The position numbers and the translations under genes are program-made. Of a stretch of 24,000 bases of DNA, positions 14,577 through 22,600 are shown in pieces (within the stretch, counting starts at the first letter, position 1; every line of letters starts with the position of its first letter). The notes below the pieces were generated by a model. The model made no database searches. It worked only from the letters and a program-made list of their open reading frames with translations, and was not told the origin of the DNA. Where the stretch lies: contig CAVOXA010000022.1 in the NCBI GenBank assembly GCA_963700285.1, forward strand, positions 123,665 to 147,664, written 5' to 3'. The DNA comes from an uncultured Chloroflexia bacterium (lineage in GTDB: Bacteria; Chloroflexota; Anaerolineae; JAAYZQ01).

Positions 14577-14603
14577 AATTCGTAAAATTCGTAAAATTCG
14601 TGG
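14577..14603 (+). repeat. AATTCGTNN 9-bp tandem array A (3 units)
   Basis: AATTCGTAA AATTCGTAA AATTCGTGG followed by caagcatcca-ATG(14614). Confidence 0.85.
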
Positions 14604-14613
14604 CAAGCATCCA

Positions 14614-15093
14614 ATGAAACGCCTACTGCTCTTTGGAACCGACAAAGCCCTGGCCCGATTCTACTACGCGGCCCACCTGCGATGTCGCGCCGCCACCCAC
14701 GACTACCGCAATAACAACGTTGCCTGCTACTCCGTCACCGAAGAGGAATACCCGGCACTCCTGGCCCTGGCCGAGAAACTCAAACTCAACCACGAGACCG
14801 TGCAGCCCGAAAACCGCTACCGCCGCACAAAGCGCTTGATTGAAGAAACCTACGCCCGCGGCGAGCGCTTCAAAACAGACGACCTCATCCAGCTAACCGG
14901 TTACAGCCGGCCCACCCTGGGCCACATCATGGCAAAACTCGTGCAGTTTGGACACGTCGAATCTCACGGACGCACCGCCGGCCACTACTATTGCAGGCCA
15001 CCCCTGACCGGCGCCGGAGCGCCAGACCAGGAAACAGGCCAATTCCCCGAGGGGATACGAGAACCCGAGGACCCCGAAAGGAGAACCACTTGA
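14614..15093 (+). CDS. Winged-helix DNA-binding protein (phage-encoded regulator candidate)
   Basis: 160 aa from ATG 14614. HTH-like segment FKTDDLIQLTGYSRPTLGHIMAKLVQFGHVESHGR. Sits between the portal and protease/scaffold genes, directly behind array A. Confidence 0.55.
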   Translation: MKRLLLFGTDKALARFYYAAHLRCRAATHDYRNNNVACYSVTEEEYPALLALAEKLKLNHETVQPENRYRRTKRLIEETYARGERFKTDDLIQLTGYSRPTLGHIMAKLVQFGHVESHGRTAGHYYCRPPLTGAGAPDQETGQFPEGIREPEDPERRTT

Positions 15094-15152
15094 TCCCAAC
15101 AGCAAACACCAACAACCCAACCACCCCGGCCGCCGCGGCCAGCGCACAACAC

Positions 15153-15175
15153 CCTGTCCTGAGCGCAGCGACAGG
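15153..15175 (+). repeat. Conserved 23-nt hairpin CCTGTCCTGAGCGCAGCGACAGG (solo copy)
   Basis: Identical to the copies at 17371-17393 and 19309-19331. Confidence 0.85.
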
Positions 15176-15204
15176 AACAGACGATCTCGCCCTGCGCTCT
15201 GCAG

Positions 15205-15894
15205 GTGAGCTCTACGCCTCCGCCCAACCAGCCGAACGCCCGCCGCACCTACTCCGCCACTTTCCTCCGCGCCGGCCACGTCCTGCAGGCTGACGGCCAA
15301 TCTTCCAACTGGCTCATACCCGCCGAGGTCCTCGAGCATGACGCCCACCTGTTCGAAGGACTCGCTTGCTACCTGGATCACCCTCAGCTCTTTGGCTTTG
15401 GCGTCCGAGGCGAGCCCCAGGTAAGGGACCTCTTTGGCGTCACCAGCCACGCCTACTATGACCCCTTCACCCAAGCCATCGAAGGACAAATCACGCTCTA
15501 CGACCAAGATCCCAACTCCGCCGGCGCTTTTGTCGCTCACCTCATGGACCAGATCCTTGCGGACAAAGAAGCGGGGAAACCGGTCCCACCCCTGGGACTC
15601 TCGGCAGTATTCTTCCAAGACGCAGACTATGACGACGAAACCGGTAAGAAAGTCACCACCGCTTTCCGTAAGGTCGAATCGCTCGATCTTGTCTACTCGC
15701 CCGGCGCTGGCGGCTATATCAAACAAGCCCTCGCTGCCATGCCGGCCCGGCCCACAGACTATCAATACCCGACTCCTCAAGCTTGCGGTATCGCCACGGC
15801 TACACACACGCCCAATACGCTCGGGCCGGACTTCCAATCGCGAGCAACGCGAAGCGACCACAGTCCGGCCCCAACCACCCAAAGGAGAAACACA
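15205..15894 (+). CDS. Prohead protease/scaffold-like region (P2 gpO-like by eye)
   Basis: FLRAGHVLQADGQSSNWLIPAEVLEHDAHLFEGLACYLDH...LSAVFF...VESLDLVYSPGAGG. Start uncertain: either GTG 15205, or TTG 15090 (SD AAAGGAGAA) in another frame, which needs a +1 shift near 15240. Reads without a stop into the capsid gene. Confidence 0.45.
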
Positions 15895-20604: not shown

Positions 20605-21330
20605 ATGATGCACCCACACCACCACAGCCGCGCCCATCGCCGGCGACTCGGGGCTAACCTCATACCCTGGACGCTAGACTTTGGCGTGTCACAACAATAC
20701 TCGGTAAACCTCGGCCACGCCGCCAGCATTGACGACCTCCACGCCGCCGACTTTACCGTTGACCTCTACTGGTACTACACTCCCGCACCCGGAGCCAACT
20801 TCTTTCACACCCTAATAGGACAAGGCGACTGGTCAACCGCCACCGGCTGGCGACTCAGCTTTTCCAACGACACGGAACGCCTATACCTTGCGGTCATCGA
20901 CGGCGCCGCAGCCGCCAAGACCACAACCAAGCCAGCAATCCCAGCCGAAAACTGGTACTATATCCGCCTACGGCGAGAAGACAACACAATCTACCTGTCC
21001 TACAACGCCGGCGCCGAAGCCACCAGCGCCACCCTGGCCGCCGGCGGCACTGCGTCAGACCTCGATCTCACCATCGGCAGCGCCAGCGGCACTCACCGGG
21101 CACTTGGTAAAGTCTGCTACGCTCACCTATGGAACAACAACCAGGGAGCCCTGGCCACCCTGCCCACCTCACCCTTCCCCATCGACGCCAACACCGTCGC
21201 CCGCTATCTCTTCAAAACCGACATCACCGGCATCGGCACAACCCTGGCCGACGACTCTGGCAACAACAACAACGGCACCATTACCGGCGCCTCCTGGAAG
21301 CGCGCCGCGCCCACACTCTGGACACCCTAA
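20605..21330 (+). CDS. LamG/concanavalin-A-like lectin domain protein
   Basis: FTVDLYWYY...TLIGQGDW...GWRLSF...LYLAV...NWYYIRLRREDNTIYLSYNAG...LTIGS...GKVCYAHLWN, followed by a second-domain start LADDSGNNNNGTITGASW. Confidence 0.55.
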   Translation: MMHPHHHSRAHRRRLGANLIPWTLDFGVSQQYSVNLGHAASIDDLHAADFTVDLYWYYTPAPGANFFHTLIGQGDWSTATGWRLSFSNDTERLYLAVIDGAAAAKTTTKPAIPAENWYYIRLRREDNTIYLSYNAGAEATSATLAAGGTASDLDLTIGSASGTHRALGKVCYAHLWNNNQGALATLPTSPFPIDANTVARYLFKTDITGIGTTLADDSGNNNNGTITGASWKRAAPTLWTP

Positions 21331-21350
21331 AAGATGGAGAACGAACCCAC

Positions 21351-21761
21351 ATGGCCTACACCTTCAAATACCGCCTGACCACCGCGCCACAGCCGCGCTC
21401 GGACGGCTCAGGATGTGTCGACCACCAGATACAAGCGATCGCTTCGCCCGACGCTACCAACTGGACACCCGTACCAGACCGGGAAAAGACGATCTCCATC
21501 CCCGCCGACGACCTGGACACCGTCCTGGCCATGCCCCACGACACCGGGCCCCAACGCGCCGCCAAAAACACAGCCTACAAGAACGTGCTCACCGACAACG
21601 CCCTGACCTTGCCCAAGGCAATCACCGGCTGGGCTACAACCGCCTTGCAAGAACTCTATGACGCCAACGACGCCGCCGTCACTGCTGCCCTCGCGGCAGA
21701 CGCCTACATAACCACAGTCCTGGGCCAGTCGTATCCCTTGGACTTTGCGCTTGAGGGTTAA
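21351..21761 (+). CDS. Hypothetical phage protein
   Basis: ATG 21351 with GGAGA SD. 136 aa (MAYTFKYRLTTAPQPRSDG...). Confidence 0.5.
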   Translation: MAYTFKYRLTTAPQPRSDGSGCVDHQIQAIASPDATNWTPVPDREKTISIPADDLDTVLAMPHDTGPQRAAKNTAYKNVLTDNALTLPKAITGWATTALQELYDANDAAVTAALAADAYITTVLGQSYPLDFALEG

Positions 21762-21764
21762 CCC

Positions 21765-22541
21765 ATGCTCTGGCTGAAACAGTCCACCGCCGTTACTATC
21801 AAACTAGGCCCCTTTGTCGACGAAACCGACGGCTACACCGCCGAGACCGGCTTGACCCTATCTCAAGCCGACGTCCGCCTGTCCAAGAATGGCGGCAACA
21901 TGGCGCAGAAAAACGAATCATCCGCTGCCACCCACGACGAGATCGGCTATTATGATTGTCCGCTCGACACCACTGACACAAACACCCTGGGCCGCCTCCT
22001 TGTCATGGTGCACGAATCAGGCGCCCGGCCAGTCCGCCTCGAATTCCTTATCGTGCCCGCCAACACCTACGACTCCCTGATCGCAGGTTCCGACCTGCTC
22101 CTGGTCGATGATGACGTCATAGCCGATCAGGTTTGGGATGAAGCCATGGCCGATCACCAGGGCGGCGGCATTACCGGCGCCTATCTAATATCCGCACAGG
22201 TCAATTCCGTCGACATCCTGGCCGACACCAACGAACTCCAGACAGACCTGACCAACGGCGGAAGACTAGACCTCATTCTCGACGCAATCCTTGCCGCCTC
22301 CGGCAGCGGATCCGGCGCCGTCACCTTCACCTACACCCTGACAAGTTCCGTGGACGCATCACCCATCCCAGACGCCCGCGTTTGGGCCACATCCGACGCC
22401 GGAGGTTCCACCGTCCTGGCCAGCGGCAGCACCGACGCCAACGGTCAAATCACATTCTACCTCGACGCCGGCACAGTCTACTTCTGGCGACAAAAAGCCG
22501 GCTGGGACTTTTCCAACCCCGACACGGAGACGGTAAGCTAA
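21765..22541 (+). CDS. Virion fibre/spike-like structural protein
   Basis: N-terminal segment TIKLGPFVDETDGYTAETGLTLSQADVRLSKNGGNMAQK...YYDCPLDTTDTNTLGRLLVMV. Central DILADTNELQTDLTNGGRLDLILDAI. C-terminal prealbumin-like segment DARVWATSDAGGSTVLASGSTDANGQITFYLDAGTVYF. Confidence 0.5.
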   Translation: MLWLKQSTAVTIKLGPFVDETDGYTAETGLTLSQADVRLSKNGGNMAQKNESSAATHDEIGYYDCPLDTTDTNTLGRLLVMVHESGARPVRLEFLIVPANTYDSLIAGSDLLLVDDDVIADQVWDEAMADHQGGGITGAYLISAQVNSVDILADTNELQTDLTNGGRLDLILDAILAASGSGSGAVTFTYTLTSSVDASPIPDARVWATSDAGGSTVLASGSTDANGQITFYLDAGTVYFWRQKAGWDFSNPDTETVS

Positions 22542-22545
22542 TGAC

Positions 22546-22600
22546 CATTCGTAAAATTCGTGTAACCTGTCCTGAGCGCAGCAACAGGATCCGGCAGAAA
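22546..22600 (+). repeat. AATTCGTNN array E with embedded (variant) hairpin
   Basis: cATTCGTaa AATTCGTgt aa [CCTGTCCTGAGCGCAGCAACAGG] ATCCGG cagaaaggcttaaccc-ATG(22611). Starts 4 nt after the previous stop. Confidence 0.8.

Follow-up and report, generated by a model that had tools for sequence, protein, structure and literature searches.

A 24,000-nucleotide stretch of DNA from an uncultured Chloroflexia bacterium (contig CAVOXA010000022.1, positions 123,665 to 147,664 of the forward strand; hereafter, the window) carries short tandem repeat arrays between the head genes of a prophage or prophage-like element. Five gaps of this gene cluster hold arrays (A–E) of a 9-nt unit built around the hexamer ATTCGT, all of them on the sense strand and ending 11–27 nt upstream of a start codon. 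The arrays are tentatively interpreted as intercistronic mRNA leaders that would be read just 5' of the Shine–Dalgarno (SD) sequence, an interpretation that we regard as possible rather than probable, and that is weighed below against three others.

Five nonamer arrays and their hairpins

The hexamer ATTCGT occurs 18 times in the window, compared with 5.8 expected occurrences (0 of 100 shuffles reached 18). Of these copies, 13 are on the + strand and grouped in five clusters, far beyond chance. The five arrays described in a first-pass annotation of the window were found where it had placed them, and so were the start codons that follow (14614, 17422, 18900, 19365 and 22611). When up to 2 mismatches are allowed, the two-unit pattern ATTCGTNNNATTCGT has 9 matches (0.61 expected), all within arrays A–E, and the tandem-repeat scan of the arrays gave a period of 9 with 2.1–4.8 copies. 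According to the open reading frame (ORF) map, all arrays lie within the non-coding fraction, which makes up roughly 7% of the region from 13.1 to 24 kb; the estimated probability of this by chance is about 2e-6. The arrays are as follows:

14577..14603, + strand: array A, three continuous units, AATTCGTAA AATTCGTAA AATTCGTGG, then CAAGCATCCA and the ATG at 14614 (winged helix-turn-helix, wHTH, gene)
17351..17405, + strand: array B, AATTCGTAA AATTCGTGT AA, hairpin at 17371-17393, ATTCGTGGC AAA; SD AAAGGA; ATG at 17422
18837..18881, + strand: array C, five continuous units, CATTCGTCC AATTCATGT AATTCGAGT AATTCGTGA AATTCGTGG, then CAAAAAGGAG and the ATG at 18900
19289..19346, + strand: array D, CATTCGTGC AATTCGTGC AA, hairpin at 19309-19331, ATTCCTGGC AAAAAA; SD; ATG at 19365
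22546..22597, + strand: array E, CATTCGTAA AATTCGTGT AA, hairpin at 22566-22588 (1 mismatch), decayed last unit ATCCGGCAG; SD AAAGG; ATG at 22611

The closing sequence is ATTCGTGGCAA(A) in arrays A, B and C, ATTCCTGGCAAA in D and a degenerate ATCCGGCAG in E; B and E are near-copies of one another. An SD lies between array and start codon in four cases, so that the earlier statement of an SD after each array fails only for array A, which has neither a recognizable SD nor a hairpin upstream and is unstructured as RNA (z +0.85). Array E likewise has no hairpin upstream. The strict 9-bp periodicity claimed for the motif is seen in A (3 units) and C (5 units), but is broken in B, D and E by a 24-nt insertion. 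Nor does the motif mark every transcription-unit start, as had been proposed, since four gaps of the cluster (17800-17931, 18037-18048, 20215-20259 and 21331-21350) have no ATTCGT array.

The unit, AATTCGTNN with a variable spacer, has (A)ATTCGTG as its core, and one or two of its positions are free. In 31 units pooled from the window and its two array-bearing relatives (L001 and L107, see below), positions 2–8 (ATTCGTG) hardly vary, in contrast to the free positions 9 and 1; the contrast is somewhat inflated by the fact that the units were collected via the core itself. Differences between neighbouring units fall at positions 1, 8 and 9 in 35 cases out of 42 (p = 3.5e-11). Decay of slippage copies would not yield such a pattern of core and spacer, and the core therefore appears, from the comparison of units, to be under constraint. 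With regard to Rho loading and RNase E cleavage, which take place on single-stranded RNA that contains C or is AU-rich, each unit, as read from the sequence, has one UC and an AAUU stretch. The first-pass annotation had not recognized the motif as a known one, and this is still the case: no part of the window matches an Rfam family at gathering score (the only match at E<1 is an irrelevant miRNA model within a gene), and the exact array strings were absent from the literature searched. Megablast of the 14–23 kb region against cultured phages returned no match.

Stable hairpins precede arrays B, C and D, and a second, smaller hairpin interrupts arrays B, D and E. The hairpins, together with copies of the smaller one found elsewhere in the window, are listed below:

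17307..17351, + strand: hairpin after the capsid gene stop, outer arms TTGGTAC...GTACCAA (-27.8 kcal/mol, z -4.4), no U-run
18712..18826, + strand: two strong hairpins between the stop at 18708 and array C (-33.3 kcal/mol, z -2.75; -29.8 kcal/mol, z -4.9)
19229..19283, + strand: hairpin before array D, TTGGTAC...GTACCAA arms (-18.3 kcal/mol, z -3.8)
15153..15175, + strand: extra exact copy of the 23-nt hairpin, 3' of the wHTH stop, where the protease-capsid ORF apparently has its 5' part; no ATTCGT units; absent from L001
10198..10220, + strand: copy of the 23-nt hairpin with 2 mismatches, in a host-like intergenic gap full of nested palindromes

The layout of terminator, array and gene suggested earlier is right as to the stable stems, but these are not terminator-like: there is no U-run after the stems before B, C and D (the sequences 3' of them are AAATTCGT, AATCAACAG and TTGGTTTTCC), and the terminator scan called no such hairpin. 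A canonical hairpin with a U-run is found in the host part, at 3064-3105.

The 23-nt hairpin CCTGTCCTGAGCGCAGCGACAGG (-12.6 kcal/mol, z -4.2) occurs five times, at 10198, 15153, 17371, 19309 and 22566, and three of these copies stand at equal register in the arrays, B, D and E each consisting of two units, AA, the hairpin and one last unit. Deleting the insert restores a perfect 9-nt register in all three. Since the hairpin is missing from the orthologous array of L001, it is regarded as a 24-nt insertion in the window arrays. As IMG/VR gave 0 matches to it, a phage-borne origin of the hairpin was rejected; its distribution resembles that of a tiny palindrome which is mobile or has been converted.

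The TTGGTAC...GTACCAA arms enclose a variable interior of about 30 nt in the hairpins before B and D (17307-17351, 19234-19277) and at six intergenic sites of L001. A GC-rich hairpin, ACCTCGGGGGTC...GACCCCCGAGGT, is found beside a GTACCAA/TTGGTAC arm in a host gap (window 3133-3175) and also, on the other strand and with 94% identity over 32 nt, behind the L001 capsid gene (12048-12092). These elements look, from their occurrences, like a family similar to repetitive extragenic palindromes and common to host and prophage. Nested palindromes of the widespread "GAGATTGCTTCG...CTCGCAATGAC" type fill the host gap at 10140-10280, and a similar element of about 57 bp is present in four tandem copies between the portal and protease-capsid genes of one relative (L125 4660-4860).

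Arrays in related prophages and in gut-phage contigs

The genome scan with the capsid protein revealed one relative, L001, an uncultured Chloroflexia metagenome-assembled genome (MAG). The two are collinear over the host-phage junction (11507-14548 in the window, 6255-9327 in L001; 82%), a segment that spans HgcA/HgcB-like genes, the promoter region and the portal gene. Taken more widely (window 10415-14548, L001 5265-9327), the two Chloroflexia MAGs match in order, at 82-92% identity, from the host flank through the junction to the left end of the prophage. This collinearity reflects either a shared integration site or a vertically inherited, possibly domesticated prophage-like element.

ATTCGT arrays are present in three gaps of L001, all on the sense strand (3/3). 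In the gap after the capsid gene, three L001 units plus GGCAA are identical to array B of the window minus its insert, and the hairpin part of the same gap is unalignable between the two. The gap of array C has no array in its L001 counterpart. The gene behind the L001 capsid gene is duplicated, and each copy has its own array, the first of ATTCGT type and the second of CTTCGAA type. L107 is related only distantly (32% identity in portal, 38% in capsid). It has (TNTTCGTGN)x3 after a hairpin that follows the capsid gene, and (ATTCGTNNN)x4 one gene further on; the L107 arrays are again on the sense strand (3/3). The distance of 11–27 nt from array end to start codon holds for 5/5 arrays of the window, 3/3 of L001 and 3/3 of L107. 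A scan of related phages, as suggested in the first-pass annotation, thus shows start-proximal arrays of this motif in L001 and L107; in 5 IMG/VR and 80 metagenome relatives (capsid 30-68% identity), no ATTCGT array was found.

Many of these relatives carry other tandem units of 7–10 nt in the equivalent gaps. For instance, (CATCGGTGTT)x3 stands at three gaps of L130, each time closing GGTGGAAA-SD-ATG, and the units of others include (CATYACG)x5, (ATCCTGTAA)x3, (GTGATGC)x3-10 and (CTAATWG)x4. Copy number at one and the same gap differs between the close relatives L122, with (GTTAGTCG)x8, and L123, with x3.4. A uniform rule (period 6–12; 2.5 copies or more; an SD and the start codon of an ORF of at least 50 codons no more than 60 nt downstream) identified 63 arrays in 733 kb of relatives (about 88 loci) and 35 in 2,155 kb of control viral loci that had themselves been picked for containing a tandem repeat. 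This corresponds to 8.6 and 1.6 arrays per 100 kb, i.e., to an approximately 5 times higher density in the relatives. The examples read in the relatives adjoin the SD, the commonest period is 7, and GC content is below that of the own locus in 35 of 48 arrays. On this comparative evidence, the placing of a short tandem array between hairpin and SD characterizes the group, with a unit that is lineage-specific.

Two further patterns were seen among the relatives. In L198, L201, L202, L153 and L174, an array is followed by an array of complementary units, e.g., (TAGGAAT)4...(AATTCCT)2(AATTCGT)2, and the intergenic hairpin is built from the repeat units themselves. The units CGGUUAGUCG, GCGUGAUGC, CAUCGGUG and UUCGUGAA (L122 7099-7161 and 7535-7607; arrays of L130) are self-complementary only with G-U pairs, and folding is far stronger for their sense strand than for the antisense strand or for shuffles (e.g., -31.2 vs -4.2 and -19.0 kcal/mol), which may indicate structure at the RNA level or merely richness in G and U.

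The first-pass annotation had called the motif element-specific, yet apart from L001 and L107 the unit is also found in unrelated IMG/VR contigs. When IMG/VR was scanned for three ATTCGT units at 9-nt spacing, the matches listed comprised coding triplet repeats and dozens of non-coding arrays; variable-spacer non-coding arrays made up 17/120 of the matches listed for ATTCGT, and 3/120 and 4/119 for permuted hexamers, a comparison of shares among the matches listed and not of absolute frequencies. The non-coding ATTCGT-type arrays, of the form (A)ATTCGT[G/T]NA or AATCCGT..., close with ...CGTGGTCG or ...CGTGTTCAAAAA. Several AATTCGTNN or AATCCGTNN arrays per contig lie between co-directional genes in L012, L024, L029, L054, L078, L097, L099, L100 and others; many adjoin a start codon in antisense, with GGTCG as the 3' flank followed by an A-rich stretch. 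A single 26-nt string is shared without change by L001, L024 and L063. No protein was found to be common to these contigs and the window, and the contig proteins are nearest to those of human-faecal and Bacteroidota phages, so that the contigs probably derive, as far as protein similarity tells, from Bacteroidota phages. A 52-nt query of the gut type gave only chance-level matches, and no published description of the AATTCGTNN/AATCCGTNN arrays of gut phages was found. The likeness between window and gut-phage arrays may be due to common descent, a common reader or convergence.

Candidate modes of action

The composition of the window changes from about 13,000 onward (GC about 0.60, GC skew -0.2, AT skew +0.2), and the genes of the phage part are all on the + strand: portal, small winged-helix protein, protease-capsid fusion and small structural genes, including an adaptor-like pair. 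A promoter scan of 12700-24000 detected a single good sigma-70-type promoter, at the head of the cluster, and no sigma-70-type -35/-10 pair (16–18 bp spacer) at any of the five arrays. The elements at the head are:

12978..13006, + strand: sigma-70-type promoter TTGACG-17-CATAAT upstream of the portal gene, 10/12 matches; L001 counterpart at about 7768-7796
13013..13028, no strand assigned: LexA/Cheo-type box TAGAACATATGTTCGT (GAAC-N4-GTTC), perfect match, just 3' of the promoter

In L001, the equivalent position bears AGAACAAGTGTTCG, promoter and box together spanning 7768-7815. The GAAC-N4-GTTC box is presumed here to be a LexA site, on the basis of a Gram-positive-type consensus. The distance from the box down to the portal start is about 65 nt, and between the host gene and the portal gene there is no terminase gene. 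Given this conserved promoter and box upstream of the portal gene, the head-gene cluster seems to be under direct SOS control. With one LexA-box promoter in this position, the arrays would be transcribed as internal parts of the mRNA, and the simplest reading of the layout is a single SOS-controlled polycistronic transcript, in which hairpins and arrays would act as internal punctuation. The portal gene, the first cistron behind the promoter, has no array upstream.

The preferred interpretation builds on this layout. The carrier would be a long co-directional head-gene operon of a Chloroflexia prophage or prophage-like element, driven from the promoter upstream of the portal gene, and each cassette would consist, in this order, of a stop codon, a GC-rich hairpin, two to five head-to-tail 9-nt units, the last closing with TTCGTGG, an A-rich spacer with the SD and a start codon. 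Within the polycistronic mRNA, the arrays would act as an AU-rich, largely single-stranded leader, recognized by its sequence immediately 5' of the SD, either by the ribosome (S1) or by another RNA-binding factor; in this way, the leader might set the translation initiation of each cistron that comes after an upstream 3' hairpin, and possibly the stability of its mRNA segment. Four observations lead us to favour an mRNA leader: the sense-strand orientation, the adjacency to the SD, the lack of an array before the portal gene and the tolerated stem-loop. The latter stands at equal register in B, D and E; the flanking units stay adjacent if they are read as a single strand, but the 9-bp phasing on duplex DNA would be broken. 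Also in favour are the near-constant core, the array retained after the capsid gene in window and L001 beside an unalignable hairpin part, the single sigma-70-type promoter and the hairpins lacking U-runs, the higher density of start-proximal arrays in relatives, and the post-transcriptional role proposed for TAACTGA repeats. Among the functions put forward in the first-pass annotation, a signal in the 5' untranslated or intercistronic region, lying in sense between upstream hairpin and SD in a co-directional cluster, thus fits best.

Several other explanations were tried and discarded. Selection of the arrays for being unstructured, or for keeping the SD open, was rejected, as native arrays equal shuffled arrays in these respects. 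By eye, TGGCAA-N-GC does not keep the sigma-54 spacing, and the spacing of GTAAC...CGT is wrong for a promoter of the extracytoplasmic function (ECF) type. By inspection, the conserved CGTG core appears to be explained neither by 16S rRNA complementarity, T-loop mimicry or consensus pause sites, nor by AT-rich nucleation of the H-NS type (TCGTAAAATT compared with tCG(t/a)T(a/t)AATT).

A number of results weigh against the leader interpretation. The native arrays are not less structured than shuffled ones and the SD is not more accessible, which leaves a generic unstructured spacer unsupported and means that a specific reader has to be postulated. In related phages, arrays on G-rich strands fold into stable hairpins, and there is consequently no RNA property common to the whole group. 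The equivalent gaps of L001 hold several unit families (ATTCGTNNA, CTTCGAA, CATCGAA). Decay of the last units in D and E suggests, as far as two arrays can, that the insertion of the hairpin was not fully neutral. One long mRNA for the 11-kb cluster is a deduction from the sequence, and the scan for sigma-70-type promoters is blind to phage-specific ones. Finally, both array orientations occur within single gut-phage contigs, mostly antisense to the adjoined gene: among 25 distinct arrays, with gene direction called by a start-codon and ORF rule, 11 adjoin a start codon in antisense, 3 in sense and 1 in both, and 10 are unclear. A reader shared with gut phages, if any, would point to duplex DNA.

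Duplex recognition is the basis of the next interpretation, which we consider rather unlikely. Here, the arrays would be oriented DNA operators or roadblocks, at which a phage DNA-binding protein (the winged-helix protein encoded behind array A or another small ribbon-helix-helix (RHH) or wHTH protein) binds head to tail to the 9-bp units and silences or gates read-through at cistron starts, much as at mycobacteriophage stoperators or at omega, MetJ or Cox repeats. Arrays of protein sites typically have such a conserved 7-bp core and free spacer; arrays that are intergenic, of one orientation relative to transcription, lineage-specific in their units and reused at several gaps per genome would also suit such a function, as would the two orientations in unrelated phage contigs. 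However, a 24-bp insertion divides 3/5 arrays at equal register, several unit families stand side by side in L001, a LexA-type operator is already present at the operon head, and the location of the arrays at 11–27 nt before the start, hugging the SD, is unneeded for a roadblock. The gene in question is the following:

14614..15093, + strand: wHTH gene, predicted ferredoxin-like N-terminal domain and C-terminal winged helix; lineage-specific insert between the portal and protease-capsid genes

The predicted fold agrees with the wHTH call of the first-pass annotation; the fold search with the predicted structure gave no informative match. The protein belongs to a four-member family, with three other homologues among 5.8 billion clustered proteins; where the context is known, all are encoded between portal and protease-capsid, and among the fetched loci a homologue is found only in L001. 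The position of this gene directly behind array A speaks for the protein as the reader. The gene co-occurs with ATTCGT arrays in the window and L001. It is absent, however, from the portal-protease slot of L107, although L107 bears ATTCGT arrays, and the gap before it contains (AATTCGTAA)x3 in the window, (TTCTTYGCG)x3 in L001 and (CTCTGCGCC)x2.5 in L446. Because of the small family, its absence from L107 and the other repeats upstream in L001 and L446, the 14614 protein would be a weak candidate for the array reader.

It is distinctly improbable, in our view, that the arrays are non-adaptive or selfish repeats, i.e., slippage-born long simple sequence repeats (LSSRs) and small palindromes that are tolerated in gaps, spread by recombination and have incidental effects on expression at most. 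Such an origin would account for the fast shifts in copy number between close relatives (L122 and L123), for the gain and loss of arrays at single gaps (array C of the window and its L001 counterpart; the wHTH gap in the window, L001 and L446), for the near-identity of B and E, and for the presence of the 23-nt hairpin and the GC-rich hairpin with the TTGGTAC arm in host intergenic DNA as well. Heptamers dominate among the arrays, as they do in prokaryotic LSSRs (Mrazek 2007, as cited in PMC4679880). On the other hand, the core-and-spacer pattern is unlike that of decayed slippage copies, the array is kept across the window, L001 and L107 while the remaining gap is replaced, orientation is strict and the association with the SD is tight, and direct repeats of about 50 nt beside essential head genes should be costly.

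Lastly, it is very unlikely that each array is a phage-specific promoter (an activator-dependent or alternative-sigma late promoter that gives each gene or small group its own unit behind a terminator hairpin), in line with the promoter function proposed earlier: even though the order of hairpin, array, short leader and gene recurs, the motif is reused at many gaps and kept in relatives, and the layout resembles the T4-type promoter-early-stem-loop (PeSL) cassettes of terminator plus promoter, none of the arrays has a sigma-70-type -35/-10 pair, the hairpins have no U-runs, tandem copy number varies from 3 to 5, no gene for a sigma factor or RNA polymerase was found among the proteins scanned, and the 24 bp between the penultimate and the last unit, which split three arrays without loss of the cassette, would shift an upstream element relative to the start site.

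Neighbouring genes and described analogues

The host-like part of the window, from base 1 to about 12,700, has a GC content of 0.65 and flat skews. Encoded there are proteins that resemble ABC-2 permeases, a solute-binding protein and, with a 2x[4Fe-4S] ferredoxin behind it, a corrinoid protein of the HgcA type. The HgcA-like protein (11451-12748 including the ferredoxin gene) has a CdhD domain with the motif NVWCAAGKGTFGT and a C-terminal membrane part. From domain content and order, the pair looks like a mercury-methylation pair of the hgcAB type, directly left of the phage cluster; it is arranged likewise in L001. No tRNA genes were found in the window.

Three genes of the phage part are split by frameshifts: the portal gene (13465-13578), the protease-capsid fusion (about 16850-17107) and the gene behind array B (17422-17799). 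The L001 capsid gene is split as well (10510-12038). Because the MAG of this closest relative, which has an MFD-prefixed name, is taken by us to be a long-read Microflora Danica assembly, the frameshifts are probably long-read sequencing indels and not signs of pseudogenization. The genes at 22611-23039 and 23225-23911 are tandem paralogues with a weak SU10-adaptor-like match, and 2–3 copies stand in a row in relatives (L001 18166-19413; L123/L124).

As regards described systems, TAACTGA heptamer repeats are known from marine Beggiatoaceae, Cyanobacteria and some Bacteroidetes, where 2–6 copies, mostly in forward orientation, lie directly upstream of starts; no function is known for them, and a post-transcriptional reader (S1, Csp or CsrA-like) has been proposed (MacGregor 2015, PMC4679880). 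Units of 5–11 nt are given for prokaryotic LSSRs in general (Mrazek 2007, as cited in PMC4679880). By analogy of layout, the start-proximal TAACTGA repeat is the closest described analogue of the arrays: both are tandem direct repeats that are intergenic, forward and start-proximal, stand at many genes per genome and are patchy across phyla, and a near match, (AACTGAN)x5 adjoining GGAGG-ATG, is found only in the relative L196. A search of both strands of the window gave no TAACTGA tandem. The arrays differ in being 9-mers with a conserved 7-nt core and a free spacer instead of perfect heptamers, in having an SD between array and start in 4/5 cases, whereas TAACTGA repeats overlap or replace the ribosome-binding site, and in belonging to a prophage structural operon with hairpins rather than to cellular genomes.

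The closest positional analogue in phages is the start-associated sequence (SAS, with its extended form, ESAS) of Cluster K mycobacteriophages, a 13-bp conserved sequence that includes the SD and lies a few bp from the start (Pope 2011, PMC3203893). It is sometimes preceded by inverted repeats, and its role is thought to be translational, with the mechanism unresolved (PMC3203893). Like the arrays, it is a phage-specific motif immediately upstream of the starts of a subset of genes; it is, however, single and contains the SD, while the arrays are tandem and separate from it, and the two have no sequence in common.

Among DNA sites, the stoperators of Cluster A mycobacteriophages (L5 gp71), each a single asymmetric 13-bp site for the immunity repressor, resemble the arrays in their many intergenic copies, their single orientation relative to transcription and their lineage-specific sequence; they are nevertheless single sites of about 13 bp and not tandem 9-bp units hugging the SD. 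Head-to-tail units bound cooperatively by small RHH or winged-helix proteins are represented by omega heptads (WATCACW), the 8-bp metboxes of MetJ and the 9-bp boxes of P2 Cox. The likeness lies in two to six or more short head-to-tail units, and the relative L133 even has (CATCACG)n arrays, but those systems act at promoters where phasing matters, while here no promoter is detectable and three arrays have a 24-bp insertion. Replication iterons are clustered direct repeats, typically of 17–22 bp, at one origin beside the initiator gene. The description of the motif as iteron-like is not supported, since the 9-bp units occupy five separate gaps across 8 kb, in a region of portal, capsid and adaptor genes, with no replication gene adjoining.

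At the RNA level, intercistronic hairpin and processing modules are known from T7 RNase III sites, the pap and puf operons, lambda tR1 (rutA-boxB-rutB) and the T4-type PeSL elements. They share with the cassette a hairpin plus a single-stranded intercistronic segment, a dispensable internal hairpin and reuse of the cassette, but none of them uses a tandem nonamer. Compared with TAACTGA repeats, SAS and stoperators, the cassette is distinct in its 9-nt unit of core and spacer, its hairpins and its location in a structural operon.

A more far-reaching proposal, which is doubtful at present, is that the (A)AT(T/C)CGTG array could be the site of a dedicated RNA- or DNA-binding reader, of phage or host origin, that coordinates late genes cistron by cistron and has been shared or reinvented by unrelated phages of Chloroflexota and Bacteroidota, and that start-proximal arrays might form a general, overlooked layer of control in a large group of HK97-like phages. 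Start-proximal short tandem repeats have so far been catalogued in few bacterial lineages, without a mechanism. The prophage cluster of the window provides a compact and tractable case: five copies lie within 8 kb, the logo separates core from spacer, a second genome has orthologous arrays, and the operon is apparently SOS-driven and so open to induction. Natural variation is at hand in the number of units (3 to 5), in the presence or absence of the internal hairpin and in the decay of last units. If no reader exists, the arrays would show the intercistronic punctuation of phage operons arising from slippage-born repeats and small palindromes. If a reader does exist, they would represent a new post-transcriptional or roadblock-type phage regulon, and would offer a handle on the unexplained cellular repeats of the TAACTGA and short tandemly repeated repetitive (STRR) types.

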